From: an uncultured Solirubrobacterales bacterium
GTDB lineage: Bacteria; Actinomycetota; Thermoleophilia; Solirubrobacterales; Solirubrobacteraceae
Assembly: GCA_963706565.1 (NCBI GenBank)
Contig: CAVPMQ010000003.1
Coordinates: 259,119-323,118, forward strand
Reading direction: 5' to 3'
Length of the DNA: 64,000 nucleotides
Shown: positions 3,661-37,394 of the stretch, piece after piece
Numbering within the stretch: position 1 is the stretch's first letter
Layout: each line of letters opens with the position of its first letter
Notes under the pieces: model-generated
Told to the model about the DNA's origin: nothing
The model's input: only the letters and a program-made list of their open reading frames with translations
Databases searched by the model: none
Position numbers and translations under genes: made by a program

Positions 3661-3764
3661 CTCCCCATCGTGCCGAATCCCGGTCTCGTGCCGCGCGGCG
3701 CAGCTAACATGCCCCCAAGCTCGGACGCCGAGGACGGATCCTCGGGGGCGCCGGGTGAGACGCC

Positions 3765-21526: not shown

Positions 21527-22638
<1,112 letters not shown>

Positions 22639-22648
22639 ACTGCTCCGC

Positions 22649-23794
22649 GTGAGCGTCGCTGAGCTGCTCGACGGCAAGCGTGTGTGCGTCTGCGCCGGCT
22701 CCGGCGGCGTGGGCAAGACGACGACCTCGGCGGCGATCGCGCTGGGGATGGCCGCGCGCGGGGCGAAGGTCGCGGTGGTCACGATCGACCCGGCCAAGCG
22801 CCTGGCCAACGCGCTCGGGCTCGAGGAGCTCCAGAACGAGCCGCGGCGGGTTGAGCCCGAGCGGCTGACCACATCGGGGCTGGAGATCTCCGGCGAGCTG
22901 TGGGCGATGATGCTCGACCCCAAGCGCACGTTCGACGAGCTGATCGAGCGGATCGCGCCCGACCCGGCCAAGGCCCAGGAGATCAAGGCCAACCGCGTCT
23001 ACCACGAGCTGTCCACCGCGGTCTCGGGCTCTCAGGAGTTCACGGCGGTGGCGAAGCTGTACGACCTCGCCCAAGCCGGCGACTTCGATCTGCTGGTGCT
23101 CGACACCCCGCCGTCGCGTAACGCGGTTGACTTCCTCGACGCGCCCGGCCGCCTGACCTCGTTTCTGGACGGGCGCGGCGTCAAGGCGTTCGTGCGGCCG
23201 ACCGGGCTCGGGATGCGCGTGCTCGGACGCGGCGCCTCGCCGCTGCTATCGGCGCTGCGCAAGGTGACCGGCGTCGACCTGCTCACCGATCTGAGCACGT
23301 TCTTCTCGCTGCTGGGCGACATGACCGACGACTTCAGCGAGCGCGCCGCGCAAGTCCAGAAGCTGTTGCGGGCCCGCACCACCGCGTTCCTGCTGGTGAC
23401 CTCGGCTCAGCGCGAGCCGATCGACGAGGCGATCTGGTTTCGGCGCACGCTCGAGCAAAGCCGGCTGCCGTTCGCCGGCGTGGTCGTCAACCGCGTCCAC
23501 CACGACCTGATGGGCGACACCGAGCCCAAGCACGTCGGCGCCGCGCTCGCCCGTCGGCTGAGCCCGGAGCTCGCCTCCAAGGTCGCCGCGAACTTCCTCG
23601 ACTACCACGTGCTGGCCCGCCGCGACCACGGCAACATCGGCCGCCTGGCCCGGGAGTTCGACGCCCAGCCGCTGCTGCTCGTGCCCCAGCTCGACGACGA
23701 TGTCCACGACGTCGAGGGCCTCCTACGCGTGCACCGCTACCTGTTCGCGCAGCGCGCCGAGCGCGACGCGCTTATCGACCAGGTCGTTGCCTAG
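22649..23794 (+). CDS. ArsA/GET3-family ATPase (Rv3680-like)
   Basis: CAGSGGVGKTT, TIDPAKRLANALG, LDTPPSRNA.DFLDAP and DDDVHD motifs. Confidence 0.9.
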   Translation: MSVAELLDGKRVCVCAGSGGVGKTTTSAAIALGMAARGAKVAVVTIDPAKRLANALGLEELQNEPRRVEPERLTTSGLEISGELWAMMLDPKRTFDELIERIAPDPAKAQEIKANRVYHELSTAVSGSQEFTAVAKLYDLAQAGDFDLLVLDTPPSRNAVDFLDAPGRLTSFLDGRGVKAFVRPTGLGMRVLGRGASPLLSALRKVTGVDLLTDLSTFFSLLGDMTDDFSERAAQVQKLLRARTTAFLLVTSAQREPIDEAIWFRRTLEQSRLPFAGVVVNRVHHDLMGDTEPKHVGAALARRLSPELASKVAANFLDYHVLARRDHGNIGRLAREFDAQPLLLVPQLDDDVHDVEGLLRVHRYLFAQRAERDALIDQVVA

Positions 23795-24906: not shown

Positions 24907-25128
24907 TCAGCTCATCTCGCCGCGGGCTACCGCGAGGCACGCCTCGCACCGCGGCCACGGCGGATTCCACGGATAGCCACTGACATCCTTGCCGCACAGC
25001 GCGGTGTCGGGATCCTCCTCGGTCACGAGGTGGCAGAGCTCCTCGAAGCCGTCCTCGTTGCGACCGGGGACGTTGATGCACTTCGGGTGGACGTTGGGGG
25101 CGATCGTCGGCCGGGTCGTGCTCGCCAT
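24907..25128 (-). CDS. Small Cys/His zinc-binding-like protein (DUF3039-like)
   Basis: CH...ALCGK...P.CEAC pattern; TATGCT 7 nt upstream of the ATG at 25128. Confidence 0.55.
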   Translation of the reverse strand: MASTTRPTIAPNVHPKCINVPGRNEDGFEELCHLVTEEDPDTALCGKDVSGYPWNPPWPRCEACLAVARGEMS

Positions 25129-25174
25129 CGCGATGAGCATAACTCCGGATGCATGGACCGCGCGTTAACCAGAA

Positions 25175-25262: not shown

Positions 25263-26606
25263 CTAGACACTCCCGGCCCCGCGTACGGGACCGAGTAGGG
25301 AGCGGTCTTCCCGAAAGGCTAGCGCCACCGTCTCTTCCGTGTCCTGCTGCGATCCGGGCACCGAGCCACGCTGGGCCGCCTCGACCAGGATCGAGTCAGC
25401 GACCGCGCGCAAGTCCGGATCCAGATGGCCGCAGAGGACGTCGCGCAGCAGCGCCCGCAGGTGCTCAGACAGCTCGTCGACCAGGGTGTCGATCCCGGAT
25501 TCGGTGACCGCCGTCCCGGCGATCGCGGCGCGCTCCAGCGAGCTCGCGCGGTTCGTCCGGTCGGCCAGCGTGTCCTGGTACTCGGGCGTCGCGCAGATCG
25601 CAGCCAGCCGCTTGGCGAGTAACCCGCTCTCTGGCCCCTCGGGCTCGAGCAACGCCCGCAGGGCCAGCAGGTAGTCGGTCAGCGCCTCGAACGGCGCCAG
25701 CCGCTCACAGCCCATCTCGAACCGGGCCAGTGCCCACGCGACCTCGCCGCTGCCCGGCGTGCGCCGCGCGATCAGGTTGCAGAACGCCCGCAGCTCATCC
25801 TCATGCTCGGCCGAGATGAACGTCACAAACCGTGGCCGGCCGCTGGCGCCGAGTGGGATCGGCCGCCAGGGTCCGGCGTCGGTCCGAGCCCAGGCGATCG
25901 GCCCCAGCGCATATCCGCCGCGTTCGAACAGCCGCAGCGCGGTCAGCGTCCGACGAAAGCGGATGCGAGCGCTGGACACCGGCGATCTCGCGCCGCGCTC
26001 CTGCGCGACGGTCAGCACCGCGAGCACGTGCGGCTCCTCCCCGTCGCCCCAGACCGCCTCCGCGGGCGCGTCGGGCAGCGCGTCTCCGCGGACCAGCGAC
26101 AGGCCCTCGCCGATCGGCAGCTCGTTCGTCGAATGCTCGAGCGCCAGCCCCAGCAGCGGCGCGATCACGGTCGCCACGCACCGGCCCTCGTACAGCGACC
26201 GCTCCAGCTCGGCGTACGCCAGCTCGAATCGCTCCCGGTCGAATTCGAACTCGCTGCGATCCGCGAACACCTGGGACAGCAACGAGCGCAAGGTCGCGTC
26301 CGCGCGCTCGCGGGGCTCGCCCGGGATCCGCGGCTCGCCCCGATGCGAGAGGTACGCCTCGACCCCGTCGAGGCTCGCCAGGGCCCGGGCTGCCGGCGCG
26401 TACGTCGGTAGGCGCGAGAGCAGCCCGACACGCTCGCGTATGAAAGCCCCGGTCAGCGGGCGGTAGCAGTACAGCGAGGCGTTGGCGCCGGGCTCCTCGA
26501 CAACCTCAAATGGGACCTCGGCCCCACGGGAAGTCTCCATCGCCAGCTGGCCGGCGGCGTCTGCGGCGAACGCCTCGATCGCCGCCTTGAGCGTTGGGTT
26601 GTGCAC
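25263..26606 (-). CDS. Hypothetical protein with HEPN/ApeA-like helical C-terminal region
   Basis: ALARF.MGCER...EALTDYLLALRALL...LAKRLAAI resembles ApeA-HEPN helices (from memory). Confidence 0.55.
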   Translation of the reverse strand: MHNPTLKAAIEAFAADAAGQLAMETSRGAEVPFEVVEEPGANASLYCYRPLTGAFIRERVGLLSRLPTYAPAARALASLDGVEAYLSHRGEPRIPGEPRERADATLRSLLSQVFADRSEFEFDRERFELAYAELERSLYEGRCVATVIAPLLGLALEHSTNELPIGEGLSLVRGDALPDAPAEAVWGDGEEPHVLAVLTVAQERGARSPVSSARIRFRRTLTALRLFERGGYALGPIAWARTDAGPWRPIPLGASGRPRFVTFISAEHEDELRAFCNLIARRTPGSGEVAWALARFEMGCERLAPFEALTDYLLALRALLEPEGPESGLLAKRLAAICATPEYQDTLADRTNRASSLERAAIAGTAVTESGIDTLVDELSEHLRALLRDVLCGHLDPDLRAVADSILVEAAQRGSVPGSQQDTEETVALAFREDRSLLGPVRGAGSV

Positions 26607-26700
26607 GCGGGCCGTTTCGTCTCCGGCCGGATTGGTCCTGCAGCGCGAACGCGAACTTGCAGCGGCCGGTGCCCGGGCTACCGGGCGTCGGTGGGGCTCA

Positions 26701-27897
26701 CTAGATGCCGCGCTGGAGCGCCAGCACCAACAGCACGACGGCGACCACGCCGGCCAGCACGACCACGGCCAGGTTGGTCGCCAGTGCGACCCTCAGCGCG
26801 CCGGGCGAGGGAGCCTGCTTGGGCTCGTCGGCGGGCGGCTCGGAGACGACGCTCTGCGCGGGGTCATCGGGTGTCAGCGTATCGACCGGTTCGTTAGCCG
26901 CAGGCGTCAACGACGTGGCGAGCGCATCTGTCACGTAGCGGTTGAGGCTTACTTCTTGGCGCTCGGCGGCGCGGGCCAGCTGCTCGTGGAGGTCGCTGGG
27001 CATCCGCACCAGGAATCGCCCGCTGTAGTTGGAGCCGTCCTTGTGCTTGCCCGGTCGAGTCGCCTGACTCTGCTGGTCTGCGCCCACGGCGGCGATTCTA
27101 GAGTTCGCCTGCCCGCTCGCGCGAGCTTTCGGACCCGGGCCCTTGGCGTTTGCCGGTTTGACGGGCGATCGAGGAGGAATAACGGGCGATATCACCGCTT
27201 CAGGGGTGATATCAGCGGGGTGGCCGTCGAGCTGCTCGCGGAGCTTGACAAGCGCCCCCTCGAGCAGCCGGGAGACGTGCGCCTGGGAGATCCCGACCGC
27301 ACGACCGATCTCGCGTTCGGTCATGTCCGCGTGAAAGCGCAGGAACACGATCCGGCGCTCGCGGTCGTCGAGCGCCCGCAGGCTGCCCGCCAGCAGCATC
27401 CGATCGTCGCTGGTGACCAGCGGTTGCGCGGTGTCGCTGCCCTCGAGCGGCTCATCGCTCGCCGGTGGCGTCACCGAATCAGCAGCCCGCTGGGCGGCCA
27501 GCGCTCGCTCTACCGCCGGCAGGTCGGCGTCGAGCGCCGTCGCGACCTCCTGGGTCGTCGGGAACCGACCGAGCTTGGTGGCGAGCTCTCCCTGGCGACG
27601 GCGGACCCGGCGGCTCATCCGAGCCACGTCGCGGGGGATCCGCACCGCGGAGACCCGATCGAGCAGGTGGCGGCGGATCTCGCCTTCGATCGCCGGCGTG
27701 ACGAACGTCGCGAACGCGACGCCGCGATCGGGGTCGAATCGGTCGGAGGCCCGTACGAGACCGATCGCGCCGACCTGGACGAGGTCGTCGAGCTCCTCTC
27801 CACGGCCCGCATACCGGCGTGCCACCGATCGGACAAGCGGCATGTGCCGGTCGATCAGAACCTGACGGGATTGCTTCTTTGCCCCTTTCACTGCCAC
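26701..27897 (-). CDS. SigB/SigF-family sigma factor fused to HicB/Arc-type RHH domain and C-terminal TM helix
   Basis: Region 2 LDDLVQVGAIGL..A.DRFDPDRG..FATF..P.IEGEIRRH; region 4 EREIGRAVGISQAHVSRL; RHH YSGRFLVRMPSDLHEQLARAAERQEVSLNRYV; hydrophobic tail LAVVVLAGVVAVVLLVLAL. Start uncertain (27891-27927). Confidence 0.85.
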   Translation of the reverse strand: MAVKGAKKQSRQVLIDRHMPLVRSVARRYAGRGEELDDLVQVGAIGLVRASDRFDPDRGVAFATFVTPAIEGEIRRHLLDRVSAVRIPRDVARMSRRVRRRQGELATKLGRFPTTQEVATALDADLPAVERALAAQRAADSVTPPASDEPLEGSDTAQPLVTSDDRMLLAGSLRALDDRERRIVFLRFHADMTEREIGRAVGISQAHVSRLLEGALVKLREQLDGHPADITPEAVISPVIPPRSPVKPANAKGPGPKARASGQANSRIAAVGADQQSQATRPGKHKDGSNYSGRFLVRMPSDLHEQLARAAERQEVSLNRYVTDALATSLTPAANEPVDTLTPDDPAQSVVSEPPADEPKQAPSPGALRVALATNLAVVVLAGVVAVVLLVLALQRGI

Positions 27898-28014
27898 ACC
27901 CCCATGTGGACCAGTATCACCCCTCAAACTAACAGGGATAGCACGACAAATGTCACTTTTGGTGGGGATCGGCGGGCTGGATCCTGGCGATAAAGAAGGG
28001 CAGGACGCAGGTTT

Positions 28015-29142
28015 ATGGCTTGTCGTAGAACGCGAAAGCTATGGGGGCATTGGGGTGTTCTGGCGTCGACCGCGACGCTGACGCTCCTATCGCTCGCCAT
28101 CCCCGGGATCGCCCAGGCCGCAAGCGCGGATGTCGCCGGCGCGGCCAGAGTCGCCATCCCCTCCGCGCCGGCCGTGCCGGCGGCCGCAGTCACGGCCGCC
28201 ACCTCCGCGCGCTCGATCGCGTCGACGGCGACCGCACATGCCTCCGCCGCGATGCCCGCCGCGCAGCCTGCCGCCGCTGCCGTCGCCGCCGCCGAGGCCG
28301 TCGCTCAGAAGGTCACTTCGAGTCCGTCCGCCGCCTCCGCAGTGAGCTCCCAGCCCTCGAGTCCGCAGGCTGTCGCCGGCGGCTCGAGCTCTTCGCCCCC
28401 ACCACCGCCCCCGGCCGTCCACTCCGGGTCCGCGTCTCAGCCGGACCCCAGTCCCGGATCGCTCGCCGACACGATCGTTCGCCACGTCGAGACCGAGGTC
28501 TCGGCCGCGATCCCGCACAACGTGCGGCCCGACTCGCCGGTCCCGTCCCAGATCAAGGCGATCGTGGCCGATCCCGTTTCGGTCGCGCATCAGGGCGCGC
28601 CCGTCACCGTGGTCGGCCCGAGCAGCGGCCGACGACACCGCGGGCCCAGCAGCTCGTGGCGCCCCGATCCGCGCTCGAGCTCGGGTCATGCGTCGGCGTC
28701 AAGGACACGGGCCGGCACGTTGCTCGCCGGCGCAGCCGCGCCCAGCGCGTGGCTCGCCGCGGCACCTGCGCCGCCCCAGTCAGCTTCGCTGTCAGCCACC
28801 GGAGACCGGCCGGGGGCGGTGGCGCCCCCCACCTCGGACGCGACCGGACCTCCGGGCTCCGGCGGCCACGCCCGCGACCACCTCCGCACCGGCTCTCGGG
28901 CTGGACGCGTTGACATCGCCACGCCGGTCGGCTCGTCGGCTCCGGCCACGGCGGCCGTGGCGCCGGCTGGATCTGAGGGCACGAGCTCGGGCGTCGGCGC
29001 AGGCGGCTCAGCGGCCGCGGCGGCGATCGTGGGGCTGGCTGGCCTCGGGCTGCTGCGGGCGTTGCTGCCGGGGCTGCTCACGCTCGACATCTTTCCCTGG
29101 CAGTCCACGCTCCGGGCCATGCGGCTCGAGCGCCCTGGCTAG
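28015..29142 (+). CDS. Exported Ala/Pro/Ser-rich protein with C-terminal hydrophobic segment ending LERPG
   Basis: N-terminal signal peptide (..LLSLAIPGIAQA), low-complexity body, AAAIVGLAGLGLLRALL segment. Confidence 0.65.
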   Translation: MACRRTRKLWGHWGVLASTATLTLLSLAIPGIAQAASADVAGAARVAIPSAPAVPAAAVTAATSARSIASTATAHASAAMPAAQPAAAAVAAAEAVAQKVTSSPSAASAVSSQPSSPQAVAGGSSSSPPPPPPAVHSGSASQPDPSPGSLADTIVRHVETEVSAAIPHNVRPDSPVPSQIKAIVADPVSVAHQGAPVTVVGPSSGRRHRGPSSSWRPDPRSSSGHASASRTRAGTLLAGAAAPSAWLAAAPAPPQSASLSATGDRPGAVAPPTSDATGPPGSGGHARDHLRTGSRAGRVDIATPVGSSAPATAAVAPAGSEGTSSGVGAGGSAAAAAIVGLAGLGLLRALLPGLLTLDIFPWQSTLRAMRLERPG

Positions 29143-29143
29143 C

Positions 29144-29202
29144 TGAGCTGTCGGTTTCGACAGTCCCATCGCCCTGCTCGACCTGAGCGGGCGAACAGCT
29201 CA
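29144..29202 (+). promoter_or_regulatory. Structured intergenic leader with mutually exclusive pairings upstream of the RBS
   Basis: CTGTCG/CGACAG hairpin competes with TGAGCTGT/ACAGCTCA; inner TCGCCC.GCTC/GAGC.GGGCGA stem; AAGGAG RBS just downstream. Confidence 0.45.
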
Positions 29203-29222
29203 AGTCAAGGAGAAACACAGCA

Positions 29223-31163
29223 ATGAGATCGAAAATGCTCACTGCTGCGGTGACGATCGCTGCGCTGGCACTGCCGGCGTCGGCGATGGCCAGTCCCGGG
29301 TCTGGAGGCTCAGGACAGGCGCAGCAGTCAAAGCAGGCCGCAGCCACGCTGCAGGCAGCCCTGTCAGCGGCACACGCCAAGCAGAACGCAACCAACGCGA
29401 ACGCTCCGGTCAACGTCGCCGGCGGCGACATCTCGGGCGGCGACAACAGCGCCAACCAGACCGCCACCAACGGCGCCCTGAGCGCAGCCGGCAACGCGGC
29501 CGGTACGCACCAGAGCAACAACCAGACCCAGTCGACTTCGGGCTCCGGCTCGGGGTATGGGTCGGGCTCCGCTCCGGGGTACAAGTCCGCTCCGGAGTAC
29601 AAGTCCGAGTCGGCTCCGTCCGCGGGGTCGGGCGGCGCTGGCCAGGCTCAGGCATCTGAGCAGGCGGCGGCTACCGCCCAGCTCGCGGCCTCCAAGGCCA
29701 AGGCCGAGCAGAACGCGACGAACGCCAACGCTCCGGTCAACGTCGCCGGCGGCGACATCTCGGGCGGCGACAACAGCGCCAACCAGACCGCCACCAACGG
29801 CGCCCTGAGCGCAGCCGGCAACGCGGCCGGTACGCACCAGAGCAACAACCAGACCCAGTCGGACCCGCCCTCGGGCCCGTCGATCGGGTCGGGTGGCTCC
29901 GGCCAGGCACAGCTGTCCGCGCAGAAGTCGCTGACCGCTCAGCTGGCGGCCTCCAAGGCCAAGGCCGAGCAGAACGCGACCAACGCGAACACGCCCGTGA
30001 ACGTCGCCGGTGGCGACGTCAACGGCGGTGACAACAGCGCCGACCAGACGGCCACCAACGGCGCCGCGAGCCTGGCCGGCAACGCGTCGGGAACGCACCA
30101 GAGCAACGACCAGAGCCAGTCCGCCGACTCCAGCTGCTACATCGGATGCGGCGGCGCGGGCCAGGCCCAGCTCTCCGAGCAGAAGTCGCTGACCGCCCAG
30201 CTGGCGGCATCGAAGGCCAAGGCCGACCAGAACGCGGTCAACGCGAATGCCCCCGTGAACGTCGCCGGTGGCGACATCTCGGGCGGCGACAACAGCGCCA
30301 ACCAGACGGCCACCAACGGCGCCCTGAGCGCCGCCGGCAATCTGGCCAACACCGACCAGAGCAACAACCAGACCCAGTCCGCCGACTCCAGCTGCTACAT
30401 CGGATGCGGCGGCGCGGGCCAGGCCCAGCTCTCCGAGCAGAAGTCGCTGACCGCCCAGCTGGCGGCGTCGAAGGCCGACGCAAACCAGAACGCGGTCAAC
30501 GCCAATGTTCCGGTGAACATCGCGGGCGGTGACGTCTACGGAGGCGACAACAGCGCCAACCAGACGGCCACCAACGGCGCCTTCAGCGCCGCCGGCAATC
30601 TGGCCAACACCGACCAGAGCAACAACCAGACCCAGTCCGCCGACTCCAGCTGCTTCATCGGATGCGGCGGCGCGGGCCAGGCTCAGCTCTCGAGCCAGGA
30701 GTCGGCCACCCTGCAGGCGGCCCTCTCCAAGGCGGACGCTCACCAGAACGCGGTCAACGCCAACGTTCCGGTGAACATCGCCGGCGGTGACATCTACGGA
30801 GGCGACAACAGCGCCAACCAGACGGCCACCAACGGCGCCTTCAGCGCCGCCGGCAATCTGGCCAACACCGACCAGAGCAACAACCAGACCCAGTCCGCCG
30901 ACTCCAGCTGCTTCATCGGATGCGGCGGCGCGGGTCAGGCCCAACTATCGGGCCAGGCCGCGCTCACGTTGCAGGGAGCGTTGTCCAGCGCGAATGCGAA
31001 CCAGAACGCGGTGAACGCCAACGTTCCGGTGAACATCGCGGGCGGTGACATCTACGGAGGCGACAACAGCGCCAACCAGACCGCCACCAACCTCGCCGGC
31101 AGCCTAGCCGGCAACTTCGCCAACACAGGCCAGACAGGAGGGCAGGACCAGTCATCGAGCTGA
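29223..31163 (+). CDS. Secreted Gln/Asn/Ala/Ser/Gly repeat protein, 7 repeats (putative fibre or amyloid-like major subunit)
   Basis: AAGGAG RBS; Sec signal ending ASAMA; seven copies of QNAxNANxPVNxAGGDxxGGDNSAxQTATN; CYIGC/CFIGC loops. Confidence 0.85.
   Translation: MRSKMLTAAVTIAALALPASAMASPGSGGSGQAQQSKQAAATLQAALSAAHAKQNATNANAPVNVAGGDISGGDNSANQTATNGALSAAGNAAGTHQSNNQTQSTSGSGSGYGSGSAPGYKSAPEYKSESAPSAGSGGAGQAQASEQAAATAQLAASKAKAEQNATNANAPVNVAGGDISGGDNSANQTATNGALSAAGNAAGTHQSNNQTQSDPPSGPSIGSGGSGQAQLSAQKSLTAQLAASKAKAEQNATNANTPVNVAGGDVNGGDNSADQTATNGAASLAGNASGTHQSNDQSQSADSSCYIGCGGAGQAQLSEQKSLTAQLAASKAKADQNAVNANAPVNVAGGDISGGDNSANQTATNGALSAAGNLANTDQSNNQTQSADSSCYIGCGGAGQAQLSEQKSLTAQLAASKADANQNAVNANVPVNIAGGDVYGGDNSANQTATNGAFSAAGNLANTDQSNNQTQSADSSCFIGCGGAGQAQLSSQESATLQAALSKADAHQNAVNANVPVNIAGGDIYGGDNSANQTATNGAFSAAGNLANTDQSNNQTQSADSSCFIGCGGAGQAQLSGQAALTLQGALSSANANQNAVNANVPVNIAGGDIYGGDNSANQTATNLAGSLAGNFANTGQTGGQDQSSS
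29310..31140 (+). repeat. Intragenic tandem repeat, 258-bp period in the distal repeats
   Basis: GCCGACTCCAGCTGC recurs at 30123, 30381, 30639 and 30897, exactly 258 bp apart. Confidence 0.9.
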
Positions 31164-31175
31164 CCTGACCCGGAC

Positions 31176-31226
31176 CGGGCGCCCCGGCGGCCCCCTCGTG
31201 GGGCCCGCCGGGGCCCGCCGGCCTTT
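31176..31226 (+). terminator. Strong GC hairpin after the repeat gene (terminator or mRNA stabiliser)
   Basis: CCCGGCGGCCCC-CTCGT-GGGGCCCGCCGGG stem followed by a short T tract. Confidence 0.5.
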
Positions 31227-31239
31227 CGTGATCCACGCG

Positions 31240-33000
31240 ATGCGAGCTCTCGGACATCCCCTGCTGCTCCCGGCGGTCGCCACGGCCGCCCTGCTGCTGT
31301 TCGTGGCGCCGCAAGCCCGGGCGGCGGACTCGGCGAGCGTGGTATCGCAGGTTCAGGCGGCGGATCTTCCCGCTACCACTGCGGATCCGGCCGCCGCGGC
31401 GGCGCCGACGAACGCTGATATCAGCGCCCCGGCGAGTCCAGATACCACCGATACAAGCTCCGTCGACAACGTTCAGAACACGGTCCAGAGCACCGATCAG
31501 ACGGATGCTCCAGCGGAGCCGGTGACACCTCCTCCCGCGCCGCCGACGCCCCCTCCCCCGCCGCCGACGTCTCCTCCCACGGCACCGGCGCCTTCGGTCG
31601 CGTCGGCGGCTCCCGCTCCGGCCGCAGCGACGAACGCGACCACCCAGGTTGTCTCGCAGGTGCAGGTCGCGGGATGTCTGTCGCACTGTCAGGGCGGGAG
31701 TCAGACCCAAGTGGCGGCGCAGCAGAACCAGACCGTCCACACGCCGGCCTCGACGTCGACTCCGACCTCGACCCCAGCGCCGTCCACCAGCCACATCAAG
31801 CAGGTCCAGGTCGGGTGCGCCAGCGCGTGTTTCGGAACCACGTCCAAGGGCTCGAGCCCCGGGCTGGGGCCGCACGAGCTGTCGGAGCTTGTGCTCGCGC
31901 TCGGCGTCGCCGACTCGCTGCCGACGACGGCGCCCATCAGCGGAGCCGTCCACAACACGGTCTCGCAGACCTCCTCGCAGCTTCAGGTTGGGACCGGCGA
32001 CGCGCAATCCCAGACACAGAGCGCCGCCCAGGCGAACCTCACGATCCAGGCACTCGGCGCCGACCTCGTCGCAAACAGCACCACGCAGGCGATCGCCCAG
32101 ATCCAGATCGGCTGTCTGTTCTATTGCCACGGCACCTCCCAGCAGCAGATCGCGACCCAGTCGAACACGACCGTCGACGTCGCTCCTTCGGCCGCAAGCG
32201 TGTCGACCGTCACAGCTTCGGCCGTGTCCAACGTCACCGACCAGCTGATCTGGCAGTTGCAGGTCGGCTGCCTGATGTGGTGCTGGGACGCGACCCAGGA
32301 TCAGTCGGCATCCAGCGACGACGCGCTGATCGAACTTCCCTCTCAGTGGCCCCCACCCCCGGCGCAGCCGTCGGACCCACAGCAGCCTCCGGACCCCGGG
32401 CCGACGGCCCCCTCGGGCCCGCCGTCGCCGTCCGTGCCGGCGCCGTCCGCTCCGGCTGCGCCGCCGGGTGTCACCGCCCCGCCGCCGTCGTTGGCCCCAT
32501 CGCCGGCGTTCGCGGCCACGCAGTCAACTTCCCCGCCGGCGGCCGGCGCCAACACCCCGACACCGGCCGGCTCGGCGATCGATGTCGGCGGCGTCGTCTC
32601 GGGATCGGTTTGGTCGGGAGCGTGGTCGGAGTCGCTCTCGGCCGCCGGTTGGAGCGTCACCGAGGCGGCGTCGCCGGCGCGCCCGGCCGAGCCTTCCGGG
32701 TCGCGGTCGCGGTCGCGGTCGCCGTTGCCGCCGTCGGCCGGCACGGTATCGGTCGTCCGCCAGGTCGCGACGTCGTCGACCTCGTTCGCCTTGGGCTCTG
32801 CGGTCCACGCCCGCCGAGCGGCCCGGAACGAGCACCGGCACGGATCGGACCCCGCTGGCGCGAAGCCGGCCGGGACGGCGGCGATCGGCGACAGCTCGGT
32901 CGACGGCAGCGCGGACCGAGCGCTCGAGCTGGGGCTGGCAGCGTTCGCGCTCGTCGGTCTGCTGGCCGGGGCTGTGGCATGGCGGCGGCGGATCGGTTGA
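31240..33000 (+). CDS. Secreted, C-terminally membrane-anchored protein with Gln-ladder/CxxxC repeats (putative minor subunit or anchor)
   Basis: Signal peptide ending QARA; repeats QVQVAGCLSHC, QVQVGCASAC, QIQIGCLFYC and QLQVGCLMWC; Pro-rich linkers; LGLAAFALVGLLAGAVA-WRRR tail. Confidence 0.8.
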   Translation: MRALGHPLLLPAVATAALLLFVAPQARAADSASVVSQVQAADLPATTADPAAAAAPTNADISAPASPDTTDTSSVDNVQNTVQSTDQTDAPAEPVTPPPAPPTPPPPPPTSPPTAPAPSVASAAPAPAAATNATTQVVSQVQVAGCLSHCQGGSQTQVAAQQNQTVHTPASTSTPTSTPAPSTSHIKQVQVGCASACFGTTSKGSSPGLGPHELSELVLALGVADSLPTTAPISGAVHNTVSQTSSQLQVGTGDAQSQTQSAAQANLTIQALGADLVANSTTQAIAQIQIGCLFYCHGTSQQQIATQSNTTVDVAPSAASVSTVTASAVSNVTDQLIWQLQVGCLMWCWDATQDQSASSDDALIELPSQWPPPPAQPSDPQQPPDPGPTAPSGPPSPSVPAPSAPAAPPGVTAPPPSLAPSPAFAATQSTSPPAAGANTPTPAGSAIDVGGVVSGSVWSGAWSESLSAAGWSVTEAASPARPAEPSGSRSRSRSPLPPSAGTVSVVRQVATSSTSFALGSAVHARRAARNEHRHGSDPAGAKPAGTAAIGDSSVDGSADRALELGLAAFALVGLLAGAVAWRRRIG

Positions 33001-33109
33001 AGCGCACAAGAAAGAGGCGTATCGTCCGCACCAGGTATCGACACGTAGGTCGCCGCGCGACAGCGGAGTGCTCGGAGCGTGGCGGACCGGGGGTAGTGGA
33101 AGGTTGAGC

Positions 33110-33781
33110 GTGAGCCGCGTGCACGGTCGTAGAGCCATCGTCTCGATGGGCGCATTCGCCCTGATGCTGGGCGCACCCGCGGTCGCGATCGCCGCCTCAC
33201 CCAGCGCCCAGCCCTCGCCCCAGAAGGCCCCGTCGGTGAGCGCCGCCGCGACGCCCGCTCCGGACCCTGCGCCCCAGGCGTCGTCGTTCTCGTCGACGCC
33301 GCACACGACCGTCACCTCGCAGCCGTCCGCCGGCTCGCCGGTATCCGTGTCGCCGACGGTCACTTCGTCGCCGGTCTCGAGCGCGCCGTCTCAGACGGCG
33401 ACGTCCGCTCCGGTCCAAACTCACAATAAGTCCGCGGTGACCGGGCCGACGTCGACCGCCGACTCCACGTCGCCGGCCAAGGCCGTCGCGGCGGCGTCAC
33501 CGACGCGGCCCCGGCCCGCCGCCCATCACGCCGACAGGCCCAAGCCCGCCCCGGTGCATCACCGCAAGCCCGTGGCAAAGCCCTTCGTGCTGTCGCTGAT
33601 GAACCCGCGCGAGCTGCCGCAATTGCCGCTGGAGGCGGTTGCGGCGACTAAGGCGGTGCGGCCGGATGGGATGCTGTTACTGCTCAGCGCGCTCGCGCTC
33701 GGGACGCTCGTGGTCGCCAGCCTGTCGCTGCTGCGTCGGCTGACCCGGCTGCATGACGAGTGGCGGGAGCGGTCGGTTTGA
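33110..33781 (+). CDS. Exported Ser/Pro/Thr-rich protein with C-terminal TM helix
   Basis: Signal-like N-terminus (FALMLGAPAVAIA), low-complexity stalk, MLLLLSALALGTLVVASLSLL-RR. Confidence 0.6.
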   Translation: MSRVHGRRAIVSMGAFALMLGAPAVAIAASPSAQPSPQKAPSVSAAATPAPDPAPQASSFSSTPHTTVTSQPSAGSPVSVSPTVTSSPVSSAPSQTATSAPVQTHNKSAVTGPTSTADSTSPAKAVAAASPTRPRPAAHHADRPKPAPVHHRKPVAKPFVLSLMNPRELPQLPLEAVAATKAVRPDGMLLLLSALALGTLVVASLSLLRRLTRLHDEWRERSV

Positions 33782-35131
33782 TCCGGCGGCGGTACCGGCT
33801 CGCGCTGGTCGGGGCCGTCGTGGTGATTGGGGTGCTACTCGTAAGTGTCGGGATGGCGTTGGCGGACGACATCTCGCGCGACGTGCACAGACAGGTCGGT
33901 CGGCGCCGGCGTGCGACGGCGGCTGGTACGCGAGCCCGGTTTCGGTCGTCTGGCAGGCGAATCCCGCTCCGACGAGCACCGACCGTGCCTGCTTGGCGTC
34001 GTGACCCAGTTCACGACGGACACTGTCACGAAGGTTTCGTGCACTGCGAATTGGCCTTCCGACAGCCAGTCGCGAAGCTACACGCTGCACGTCGAGGCTT
34101 CGAACCCGAGCGCGTCCGCAGTCGCCGTCTCGACCACCGGATGCGAACGGCTGGTACAACCATCCGTTCTCGCGTTTCGTTCCGGGGTAGCGCGTTCTCT
34201 GGGATCGCGTCTTGCAGCGTGCCGGTGACGTACGGCGGTCCCGACACGCTCAACACGAGCGTTGCCGGCATCTGCATCGACCACGCCGGCAAGACCGCGG
34301 GCGCAAGCGTCTCGGTCCACTACGACGCAACCCCCCCGACGATCACCTCGGGCCTCCCCACCCGGGCGCCGGACCACAACGGCTGGTACACGCACCCGGT
34401 CACGTTCGCGTTCAACGGAACCGACGCAACCTCGGGGGTGAGCAGCTGCGCGAACATCACCTACGCGGGCCCGAGCAGCGCCTCGGCCGCGGTGACCGGC
34501 AGTTGCGTAGACCGCGCGGGCAACGTCGCCCGGATGGCGGTGCCGCTGCACTACGACTCGACCGCGCCCTCGCTGGCGGTATCGACCGCTACCGGCGACG
34601 GGTTCGTGGGGCTCGATTGGAAGACAGGTGCCGACGTCGCGCCGCTGACGTACGATCGAGGTGACCCGCAAGCCGGGCCGCCGCGCCGCCGACAGCAGCG
34701 TCGTCTACCGCGGCAAGGCCGGCGACTTCCGCGACCTGCACGTCAGTAACCGAAAGCGCTACCGGTACACGATCACCGCCACCGACCAGGCCGGCAACAG
34801 GTCGGCCCGGGTCGTGTCGATCACCGCCGGCCCGCACCTGATCTCACCCGGCGACGGCGCCCGGGTGGGGGCTCCGCCGCTGCTGACCTGGACCTCGGTT
34901 CGCCGCGCCACCTACTACAACGTCCAGCTGTTCCGCGGCCGGAAGCTGATGAGCATCTGGCCGGACACCACGAGCCTGCAGCTCAAGCGCAGCTGGCGCT
35001 TCGGCCGCCATCACTACAACCTGCGCCCCGGCCGCTACCGGTGGTTCGTGTGGCCGGGCTTCGGCGAGCGCTCAGCCGCCCGCTACGGACACGCGATCGG
35101 CAGCGGGACATTCGTGGTCACCGCACGGTGA
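33778..35131 (+). CDS. Secreted Ig-like/fibronectin-type repeat protein (several frameshifts)
   Basis: Signal peptide; repeated (N/G)GWY..P...C.D.AG(K/N)...V.YD.T.P modules spread over three frames; Fn3-like YRYTITATDQAGN.S. Confidence 0.65.
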
Positions 35132-35744: not shown

Positions 35745-36128
35745 TCAGACGGCCGCGGCGACCGGCTCGGGCTCGTCGAGCGGCTCGCTGGCGGACGCGT
35801 CCTCGTCGTCGCAGTCGCTGCCCAGCAGCCACTTGAGCCCGTAGGCACGCATGTCCTCGATCAGCGGCACGAGCGCCCGGCCCTTCACGGTGAGCGCGTA
35901 CTCGACCCGCGGCGGGACCTCGGGAAACGTCTGGCGCTCCACGATCCCCTCTTCCTCTAGCGCACGCAGGCGCAGCGAGAGAGTGCGCGGGCTGATCCCC
36001 GCCAGCGAGCGCTCCAGCTCGCAGAAGCGGGACCGGCCCTCGGCCAGGTCGCGGATCACCAGCAGCGTCCATTTGCCGCACACCACATCCGCGGTGCGGC
36101 AGACCGGACAAGTGTCATTCGTTGCCAT
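35745..36128 (-). CDS. HxlR family winged-helix regulator
   Basis: CPV..TADVVCGKWTLLVIRDL, ISPRTLS.RLR.LE and PPRVEY.LT motifs. Confidence 0.9.
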   Translation of the reverse strand: MATNDTCPVCRTADVVCGKWTLLVIRDLAEGRSRFCELERSLAGISPRTLSLRLRALEEEGIVERQTFPEVPPRVEYALTVKGRALVPLIEDMRAYGLKWLLGSDCDDEDASASEPLDEPEPVAAAV

Positions 36129-36136
36129 CAATCCCG

Positions 36137-36293: not shown

Positions 36294-37394
36294 CTAGGCG
36301 ACGTCCCTCAGCTTCTGCGCCTCGGCGAGCGACTGAAGCTTCTTCAGAGACTGGTTCTCGATCTGACGAATCCGCTCGCGGGTGACGTTGAACGTCCGGC
36401 CGACCTCGTCCAGCGTCCGCGGGTGCTCGCCGCCGAGGCCGTAACGGAGCTCGAGCACGCGGCGCTCGCGGTAGCTCAGGTTCTCCAAGGCCTCGCGGAG
36501 GGCCTCCTTGGTGAGGATCTCGGCGGCCCGCTCGTACGGAGACTCTGCCCGCTCGTCGGCGATGAACTGCCCGAACTCAGACTCCTCCTCGTCGCCCACC
36601 GGCTTCTCCAGCGAAACCGGCGCTTGCGCGGACCGCTTGATCGACTCGACCTCCTCGGGCTCGATCCCCGTGACCTCGGCGATCTCCTCGGCGGTCGGCT
36701 CACGACCGAGCTCGGTGACGAGCTTGCGCTCGGCCCGGCCGATCTTGTTGAGCTTCTCGACCACGTGAACGGGGATCCGGATGGTGCGGGCCTTGTCGGC
36801 CAGCGCGCGGGCGATTGCCTGTCGGATCCACCAGGTCGCGTAGGTCGAGAACTTGAACCCCTTGCGATAGTCGAACTTCTCTGCGGCGCGGACGAGGCCC
36901 AGCGTCCCTTCCTGGATCAGGTCGAGGAACGGAAGCCCCTGGTTGCGGTAGTTCTTCGCGATCGAGACGACCAGACGGAGGTTCGACTCGACCATCTTCT
37001 GCTTGGCATCAAGGTCGCCCCGCTCGATCCGCTTGGCCAGATCGACCTCCTCCTGAGCGGTCAGGAGGCGAACCTTGCCGATGTCCTTCAGGAACAGCTG
37101 GAGGGAATCGGTCGTCATGTCCGGCTTGAGATCGAGCGCAGTCTTGGGCTTGCGCCGGCCACGACGGTCAGGCGCACGCTCCAGTTCTGCGGCGGCGATC
37201 GCGGGATCCAGCTCTTCGACGAGCTCGATCTCGGCTCGCTCGAGGAAGCCGTGGAGGTCCTCGACGTCGGCCTCGTCGAGATCGAGCTCCGATACCGCGG
37301 TGGCAATGTCGGCGTACGTCAGAACGCCAAGCTGCTGTCCCCGCGTGACCAGCCCTTTGATCTCTTCGAGTTCCTGCAGTTCCGCTACTGACAT
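36294..37394 (-). CDS. rpoD: RNA polymerase sigma-70 factor, RpoD/SigA type
   Basis: Region 1.1-like N-terminus, [35 protein letters not shown] and [10 protein letters not shown]; could be a paralog of the primary sigma. Confidence 0.88.

Follow-up and report, generated by a model that had tools for sequence, protein, structure and literature searches.

A dedicated family of sigma factors in the bacterial class Thermoleophilia is genetically coupled, either by fusion into one gene or by adjacency of two genes, to a predicted tail-anchored protein with a ribbon-helix-helix (RHH) domain. The member described here is a fusion encoded on the minus strand at 26701-27891 of a 64,000-nucleotide stretch of DNA (hereafter the window), which comes from an uncultured Solirubrobacterales bacterium (GenBank assembly GCA_963706565.1, contig CAVPMQ010000003.1, positions 259,119 to 323,118). 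In this gene, sigma regions 2 to 4 are followed by the RHH domain and by a C-terminal helix predicted to be transmembrane (TM). Group-3 sigma factors, to which the sigma part belongs, are the textbook case of control by soluble partner switching. In place of such switching, a whole sigma lineage of the Thermoleophilia, represented here mostly by soil and related metagenomes, is tied to an RHH protein that is predicted to be membrane-anchored, and the pair has repeatedly toggled between two genes and one fused gene with a putative internal start. Together, these features suggest that sigma activity is controlled here in a manner not described before.

The sigma-RHH-TM fusion gene

On the minus strand, the fusion occupies a single unbroken open reading frame (ORF) that extends from TTG 27927 down to the stop codon at 26701-26703, in agreement with the original prediction, which had been made from the letters of the window alone. 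That prediction placed the start at 27897, which is indeed an in-frame GTG, but the likely start lies two codons downstream, at GTG 27891. Because close homologs begin at the counterpart of this codon (MKGAK...) and the conserved block upstream extends up to it and ends there, the likely product has 396 amino acids (aa). Residue numbers of domains and single residues are given throughout in a 408-aa frame counted from TTG 27927.

The fusion gene has been confirmed to be real and widely conserved. Among the best 120 of 1056 database matches, all possess the sigma regions together with the HicB-family domain PF05534, and the hydrophobic tail is present in every one of the 116 that bear the RHH motif, so that the complete order of sigma, RHH and TM parts is a common architecture. 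Moreover, Logan contigs from three independent studies, compared over 26600-28000, differ from the window by substitutions alone, without any insertion or deletion, and cover both linkers; one contig of 2027 nt spans the whole interval, and others bridge the sigma4-RHH and RHH-TM linkers free of gaps. An assembly or indel artefact that joined two genes, a concern raised along with the original prediction, draws some credit from the many related metagenome-assembled genomes (MAGs) that are long-read assemblies, and from three Solirubrobacterales loci classified as split (L060, L064 and L076), which sit beside near-identical fused sisters on the sigma tree and may be frameshift errors. The gap-free contigs from three studies, the fused state of 120/120 top homologs and the existence of 55 fused species-representative loci, short-read assemblies included, make such an artefact vanishingly improbable.

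The sigma part is covered by Pfam matches above their cut-offs to region 2 (PF04542 Sigma70_r2, aa 24-91, 27655-27858, E=6e-20), region 3 (PF04539 Sigma70_r3, aa 106-159, 27451-27612, E=8.6e-8) and region 4 (PF04545 Sigma70_r4, aa 183-231, 27235-27381, E=3.9e-12). In the same Pfam search the fusion protein gave no match to sigma region r1_1 or r1_2, and a marginal one to the extracytoplasmic function (ECF) model PF07638 (E=0.045). The top NCBIfam model is TIGR02980, for SigB/F/G, at 197.9 bits and thus under its cut-off of 234.35, which is passed by four paralogs of the same genome. Among solved structures, the nearest is that of sigma-F bound to SpoIIAB (1L0O chain C, E=2e-33). Beyond region 4, a Pro/Ala/Lys-rich linker that varies in length among homologs and is predicted to be disordered (linker 1, aa 235-298, 27034-27225) leads to the RHH domain of HicB/Arc type (aa 299-340, 26908-27033). 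This domain is identified by the Pfam family PF05534 (aa 299-336, E=7e-13, 48.7 bits vs a cut-off of 21), by a weak Arc-family match on the same stretch (E=0.016), and by an invariant core, an alignment with AmrZ and modelled helices. A second variable linker, acidic, Pro-rich and predicted to be disordered (linker 2, aa 341-376, 26800-26907), is followed by a predicted TM tail anchor (aa 377-405, 26713-26799) and a tail of 3 residues, the anchor being suggested by hydrophobicity, conservation and a modelled helix.

An AlphaFold2 monomer model of the ORF product, built on 114 homologs, agrees with this layout. Its sigma2, sigma3 and sigma4 parts are confident, with helices that fit these domains and a predicted local distance difference test (pLDDT) score above 90 for the helices of region 2, while residues 239-303 and 346-368 appear as disordered linkers. 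RHH helices are placed at 311-323 and 328-340, the RHH strand is not formed in the monomer, and the C-terminal helix (377-405) stops 3 residues short of the C-terminus at 408. With a sigma domain rather than a signal peptide at the N-terminus and a single TM helix at the C-terminus, the protein has the predicted layout of a tail anchor. The SigB/SigF-type regions 2-4, the HicB/Arc-like RHH domain, the linkers and the hydrophobic terminus that had been recognised by eye in the original prediction are therefore all upheld by profile searches, homologs and modelling.

Shortly after region 4, the fused proteins have a short conserved motif, D-x-T-x-x-x-V-I-S-P (aa 239-248, about 27184-27213). A kindred [VI]-S-P is found in the sole split-form sigma tail that was read (L011) and in the fused locus L029. 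The motif could be a docking or a cleavage site.

One sigma family in fused and split form

To survey loci, one genome per GTDB species was searched with an RHH-TM alignment as query, which returned 545 stretches, and the best 80 were classified. Fifty-five of these are fused and 23 are split, the latter with a SigB/F-like sigma gene directly upstream of an RHH-TM gene. The remaining two comprise one locus without a sigma gene and one interrupted by a contig end; with the interrupted locus set aside, 78 of 79 thus show linkage to a single sigma family. By their labels, the 80 loci belong to MAGs of Solirubrobacterales, Solirubrobacteraceae, Thermoleophilaceae, Gaiellaceae or Actinomycetota/Actinomycetes/Actinobacteria, with one exception. 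The exception (L042, DATJUU010000081.1) is a 9.5-kb contig binned as Opitutaceae, on which a fused gene of typical Solirubrobacterales kind is accompanied by the usual downstream genes; the contig is probably mis-binned.

The split form is exemplified by L011, in which a 230-aa sigma gene is followed, after a gap of 13 nt, by a 170-aa protein composed of a HicB N-domain, the RHH domain and the tail anchor. A SigB/F-like sigma gene also lies immediately upstream in 13 of 14 further loci, mostly in a different frame or with a stop codon between. In an exhaustive RHH-TM profile search over 1.84 billion cluster representatives, 443 clusters were matched at E≤1e-10; of the best 149 (50% identity), which were inspected, a sigma domain is present in 61 and absent from 88, and in nearly all the match reaches the C-terminus or ends within a few residues of it. 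A class-wide search of 301 genomes with the C-terminal 124 aa, in which up to 14 candidates per genome were scored, found matches in at least 38, a floor and no measure of distribution, and many of these matches lie in short open frames. The split forms show that the RHH-TM module can stand on its own as a partner of these sigmas. The original prediction had held that separate sigma and RHH-TM genes would speak against it; such genes do occur in sister lineages, yet the fusion in the window stands and is conserved in frame.

The relationships were examined with a quick maximum-likelihood tree of 89 RHH-TM-linked sigmas, 10 paralogs from the same genome and 9 unlinked sigmas, the last being the best sigma matches from related genomes that lack the RHH-TM module. 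All 89 linked sigmas form one group that leaves the 10 paralogs and 9 unlinked sigmas outside (SH-aLRT 80, moderate support), and on this tree the fused or split state has switched at least five times. Wherever the two parts are fused, the frame is maintained across linkers of 44-165 aa. In the genome under study the module is single-copy.

Public records list fused forms as 'sigma-B factor' or 'sigma-70 family', while those that stand alone appear as 'HicB antitoxin' or 'hypothetical'. The linkage between sigma and RHH-TM now corrects these annotations. The antitoxin name, the HicB family match, the HicB N-terminal domain (PF15919) retained in a subset of homologs and the five or more switches between fused and split states would all suit a simpler explanation, namely that a former antitoxin merely represses its own operon and that the fusion arose when a stop codon was lost, a change that was tolerated and means nothing for sigma regulation. 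Such an autorepressor has no HicA nearby: no HicA (PF07927) match exists in the window, the genome has a single match (C3:805174), some 500 kb distant, and the related loci L002, L003 and L005 yielded none. Nor does Pfam find PF15919 in the window protein. Given also that 78 of 79 uncut loci are tied to one sigma family, that the frame survives linkers of such different lengths and that the TM sequence is conserved far beyond the need for anchoring, this explanation is regarded as improbable.

As to distribution, none of five genomes of the same genus (G005, G017, G101, G125 and G244) has a close ortholog, their best sigma-only matches being 42-45% identical, and among 30 genomes of the same family very few have the RHH-TM module, namely G214 (split) and G299 (fused). 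Dozens of other Solirubrobacterales species carry it in conserved synteny. The module may thus be patchily distributed, or contig C3 may be foreign to this MAG (completeness 89.7%, contamination 4.7%).

A putative internal start in the fused gene

Linker 1 holds a single conserved peptide motif, [KR]-I-x-x-V-[GSAD], which reads as a nucleotide signal. In the window it comprises a -10-like hexamer, TAGAAT (27095-27100, minus strand), spelled by the codons TCT-AGA-ATC, and an in-frame GTG (27085-27087, minus strand) 7 nt past the hexamer, which is proposed as the leaderless start of a 128-aa RHH-TM protein (26701-27087). Two of these codons are rare in the genes of the window, with AGA accounting for 1.6% of the codons for Arg and TCT for 2.6% of those for Ser. 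Across homologs, the Val codon of the motif is GTG in 27 of 27 loci vs 44% of Val codons overall, and the bases before it read TAGAAT, TAAAAT or TAAGAT. A scan of 46 fused loci found a TAnnnT in the linker, followed after exactly 7 nt by an in-frame GTG (ATG in one locus), in 35 of them; the background in the sigma parts is 2 sites of the TAnnnT-N7-GTG form in 11,062 codons.

The position of the putative start is equally regular. It lies just ahead of the HicB N-domain where that domain is present and otherwise 13-33 residues ahead of the RHH domain, and it coincides with the beginning of the stand-alone protein in genomes with split genes. In many split loci, moreover, a TAnnnT stands 6-9 nt upstream of the candidate start codon of the partner gene. 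In Mycobacterium smegmatis, ANNNT occurs at -13 to -6 in 79% of promoters, with a preceding T in 63% of those, and 24% of transcripts are leaderless (PMC6448022). By analogy, the TAnnnT-N7-GTG geometry fits the mapped leaderless promoters of mycobacteria (PMC6448022). Because a leaderless-type start is conserved inside the fused ORF, the locus probably also yields the predicted 128-aa RHH-TM protein beside the 396-aa fusion. This start was absent from the original prediction.

A different arrangement is seen in five Gaiellaceae-type split loci (L084, L088, L093, L096 and L100, at about 3695-3710), where an invariant TACAATCG precedes the first ATG of the partner. The gap from hexamer to ATG is just 2 nt there, too short for a leaderless start at that ATG.

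Conserved residues and upstream sites

The core of the RHH domain, S-G-[RK]-[FL]-L-[VL]-R-M-P ... L-H ... S-L-N, shows little or no variation, whether the module is fused or split. Residues R/K304, L306 and R308 align with K18, V20 and R22, by which AmrZ reads bases in its complex with DNA, and L306 and R308 do not vary in either form. The sequence pattern of Arc/MetJ-type proteins, with base-reading residues at alternate places of the strand and a phosphate anchor where helix 2 begins, is conserved. From these AmrZ-like residues, the domain is predicted to bind DNA. The predicted TM helix is also constrained, with R379 and N385 near-invariant and A396, L399 and A403 invariant, a conservation far above what anchoring needs. 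Such conservation in a TM helix suggests that it pairs with another helix or is recognised by an intramembrane protease. A complex prediction of sigma aa 14-240 with two copies of the RHH domain (aa 294-345) scored 0.00 vs a mark of 0.32, which gives no verdict on binding.

Upstream of the fusion gene lies a conserved, promoter-like or operator-like pair of near-GRTAYC hexamers, GCTATC-N18-GATACT (27913-27942, minus strand), the only such site in the window. Over 71 loci, GRTAYC occurs upstream of these sigma genes at 5.1 per kb vs 0.54 per kb elsewhere in the loci, an enrichment of about 9-fold. Two or more upstream hexamers, often 14 bp apart, are present in 31 of the 71 loci and are common to diverged lineages, and several Gaiellaceae-type split loci show GATAAT and then GRTAYC one helical turn later. 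The hexamers could be operators of the RHH domain or, equally, promoter elements of the sigma factor itself.

Motif scans of the window and of the whole genome brought out no regulon. In the window, a SigB-type pattern (GkTT-N14-19-GGGTAy) had 0 matches vs 1.6 expected, and GRTAYC alone was not enriched (26 vs 22.7 expected). A local cluster of GRTAYC at 31341-31446 falls within coding sequence.

How the sigma factor may be controlled

The preferred reading, held tentatively and at somewhat less than an even chance, is that the RHH partner, as a tail-anchored dimer, tethers the sigma factor or antagonises it and may also bind the palindromic GRTAYC sites upstream. Two products would be made, the 396-aa sigma-RHH-TM protein and the 128-aa RHH-TM protein, and they should pair at the membrane because dimerisation is obligate for RHH domains and a near-invariant Asn lies in the TM helix. 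The sigma domain would thereby be held at the membrane, with the partner acting as a built-in anti-sigma factor or tether, and it would be activated on release, through cleavage in the disordered linkers or the TM helix or through a shift in the ratio of long to short form. As the DNA-reading strand is invariant, the RHH module probably binds GRTAYC upstream of the sigma gene, which would amount to autoregulation, and the most likely targets of the sigma factor would be the neighbouring exported repeat proteins. The model put forward in the original prediction, in which the sigma factor is sequestered at the membrane and set free by proteolysis, is plausible.

The gene for an anti-sigma factor typically takes position +1, and its product usually spans the membrane with one TM helix (PMC7826278). 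An anti-sigma-like role is suggested here because the partner likewise occupies position +1 and has one TM helix (PMC7826278), while the RHH domain, the lack of an external segment and the nested start depart from the usual anti-sigma signature. A bolder form of the preferred reading takes the module as a new anti-sigma or co-sigma class, in which the nested start supplies free partner, long and short forms heterodimerise into an (RHH)2:sigma1 assembly at the membrane, and the reading of GRTAYC couples sequestration to autoregulation of genes for exported surface structures; in this full form it would be rather unlikely. Three questions are raised by the locus: whether an RHH protein can serve as an anti-sigma or a co-sigma factor, whether a sigma factor can function, or be stored, while attached to a tail anchor without a sensor domain, and how a nested short isoform affects stoichiometry.

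Several points weigh against the tethering model. Contact between the RHH/TM part and the sigma domain is conjectural, and the internal start is predicted from sequence only. Pfam finds no known anti-sigma domain (ASD, zf-HC2, RskA and similar) down to E=1, no sensor is apparent because the external tail is just 3 residues long, and no protease is linked to the sigma-RHH-TM locus, the M50 proteases of the genome lying elsewhere, as in most bacteria. The surveyed loci are mutually related, so that counts across them overstate independence. As to DNA binding, the hexamers may be promoter elements and not operators, in view of their resemblance to the SigB/F-type -10 element GGGTAT; the lineage of the window has near-matches to GRTAYC only (GCTATC and GATACT); no second GyTAyC-N15-18-GrTAyy element exists within the 64-kb window; and hexamer pairs 13-15 bp apart in the whole genome number 5 vs 2 expected, no clear excess.

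The membrane anchor, too, is open to another explanation. The TetR-like protein SCO4008, a DNA-binding protein predicted to be tail-anchored, fractionated as soluble (PMC3087755), and the conserved Asn and small residues of the helix studied here would suit helix-helix packing, so that the helix might serve for oligomerisation or partner binding in a soluble sigma-RHH protein. About 25 consecutive hydrophobic residues, a near-invariant Arg before them and a place at the extreme C-terminus in nearly all forms make up the classic layout of a tail anchor, however, and a helix that is not inserted in the membrane is considered very improbable.

The main rival to tethering holds that the RHH-TM part is a membrane-bound DNA-binding co-activator or recruiter in the manner of ToxR or CadC, which binds GRTAYC sites and brings the tethered sigma factor or the holoenzyme to the promoters of genes for envelope or exported proteins without any release. 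Fusion would then just make the contact between sigma and activator permanent, and proteolysis would not be needed. The DNA-reading residues that are invariant in fused and split forms, the roughly 9-fold enrichment of palindromic hexamers upstream of the sigma genes, the flexible linker of about 60 residues after the sigma C-terminus, and an exported, surface or polysaccharide-related gene context in both fused and split lineages all accord with it. It is nevertheless considered unlikely: the upstream element has no second copy before the divergent gene cluster or elsewhere in the window, the genome-wide count of hexamer pairs shows no clear excess, the sigma factor itself may read the hexamers as promoter elements, and the conserved, separately started short form is left unexplained.

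Comparison with known systems

Tethering of a sigma factor by an RHH-TM partner has features in common with sigma/anti-sigma pairs of the RseA, RsiW and RsgI type, in which, as in the split lineages here, the partner is encoded at +1 and has one TM helix with the cytoplasmic part N-terminal to it. The TM helix of RsgI is cut by RseP (PMC12203970). Unlike in these pairs, the sigma factor here belongs to group 3 and not to the ECF or SigI type, the cytoplasmic domain is of RHH type and not a known anti-sigma domain, nothing extracytoplasmic beyond the short tail is present, and the partner is fused and retains its own putative start. A regulatory module fused after region 4 is shared with ECF41, ECF42 and ECF263 (PMC3426412; PMC7826278), ECF263 having 5 or 7 TM helices (PMC7826278). 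These are, however, group-4 sigmas without region 3, which is present here, and their extensions are SnoaL-like, Cys-rich or polytopic, with no nested product described for them, whereas the extension here is an RHH domain plus a predicted tail anchor.

The resemblance to SigF and SigB lies in the nearest structure (the sigma-F of 1L0O) and the best NCBIfam model; the differences from sigmas governed by SpoIIAB or RsbW switching are the score below the subfamily cut-off and the lack of PF13581 and PF13466 matches in the window. With HicB antitoxins and Arc/MetJ-type regulators such as AmrZ and Arc, the module shares PF05534 and a basic-hydrophobic-basic strand like that of K18, V20 and R22 in AmrZ. 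It differs from them in being predicted to be membrane-anchored, in its link to a sigma factor in 78 of 79 uncut loci and in having no HicA nearby. Bacillus subtilis pro-sigma-K and pro-sigma-E are also inactive, membrane-associated precursors activated by proteolysis; their pro-sequences are short and N-terminal, without a DNA-binding domain or a true TM anchor. Finally, like bacterial tail-anchored proteins (PMC3087755), the fusion has no N-terminal signal, and its one predicted TM helix lies at the very C-terminal end. No sigma factor appears in the searched text of that tail-anchored protein study (PMC3087755), and in the full-text literature searched, none is described as fused or paired with an RHH domain or a tail anchor.

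Partner-switching genes and genomic neighbourhood

The original prediction had stated that no partner-switching genes adjoin the fusion, and this agrees with the window, in which neither an RsbW-like PF13581 nor a STAS_2 PF13466 match was found, PF01740 being outside that search. The genome as a whole has about 15 STAS_2 matches and several small RsbW-like genes. Two of its canonical SigB/F paralogs (C12:248023-249335 and C11:247631-248660) do have such genes nearby, as both directly adjoin STAS_2 genes and RsbW-like genes lie about 10 kb away on C12. RsbW/STAS control of the fusion from a distance may occur.

Downstream of the fusion, after 94 nt, a co-oriented gene encodes a 447-aa protein (25263-26606, minus strand) that is conserved in 31 related loci at 58-91% identity. 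No Pfam family matches it, its AlphaFold2 model (pLDDT 76) has no match in the PDB at E≤0.001, and ESM Atlas searches by features and folds gave unnamed actinobacterial clusters only. Between this gene and ppa, a 77-aa protein with four Cys residues (24907-25140, minus strand) is conserved in 26 related loci and belongs to no family. The downstream order in the fused lineages is the 447-aa protein (31 loci), the 77-aa Cys protein (26) and inorganic pyrophosphatase (23).

On the other side, a divergent run of ORFs extends over 28015-35131 (plus strand). Three of its ORFs were scanned and gave no Pfam family, and at least two have a signal-peptide-like N-terminus. One of its products, of 375 aa and rich in Ala, Pro and Ser, begins like a signal peptide and has a hydrophobic stretch at its C-terminal side. 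Another is a 646-aa protein (29223-31163) with about seven Q/N-rich repeats, which stands divergently upstream in 40 of the 80 related loci. The Thermoleophilaceae locus L065 has a different N/S/Q-rich repeat protein at that position. In split lineages, the neighbours resemble surface or polysaccharide genes, as judged by inspection of their sequences only. It is possible that the divergent run is the regulon of the sigma-RHH-TM protein, and its exported repeat proteins are flagged as candidates.

Farther away, at a distance of a few kb, 22598-23794 (plus strand) encodes an ArsA-family ATPase (PF02374, E=3e-25), whose synteny is kept in at least 11 loci; L002 and L003 have more ArsA/ParA-like genes and ftsZ nearby. 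The ArsA family includes Get3, the eukaryotic targeting factor for tail-anchored proteins. A link between this ATPase and insertion of the tail anchor is pure speculation, and in the literature searched, no paper supports a Get3-like role of Rv3679/Rv3680. A principal-type sigma factor with regions 1.1 to 4 (36294-37394, minus strand) and an HxlR-family regulator (35745-36131, minus strand) lie about 8 kb from the fused sigma, and both neighbours recur in L003 and L005.

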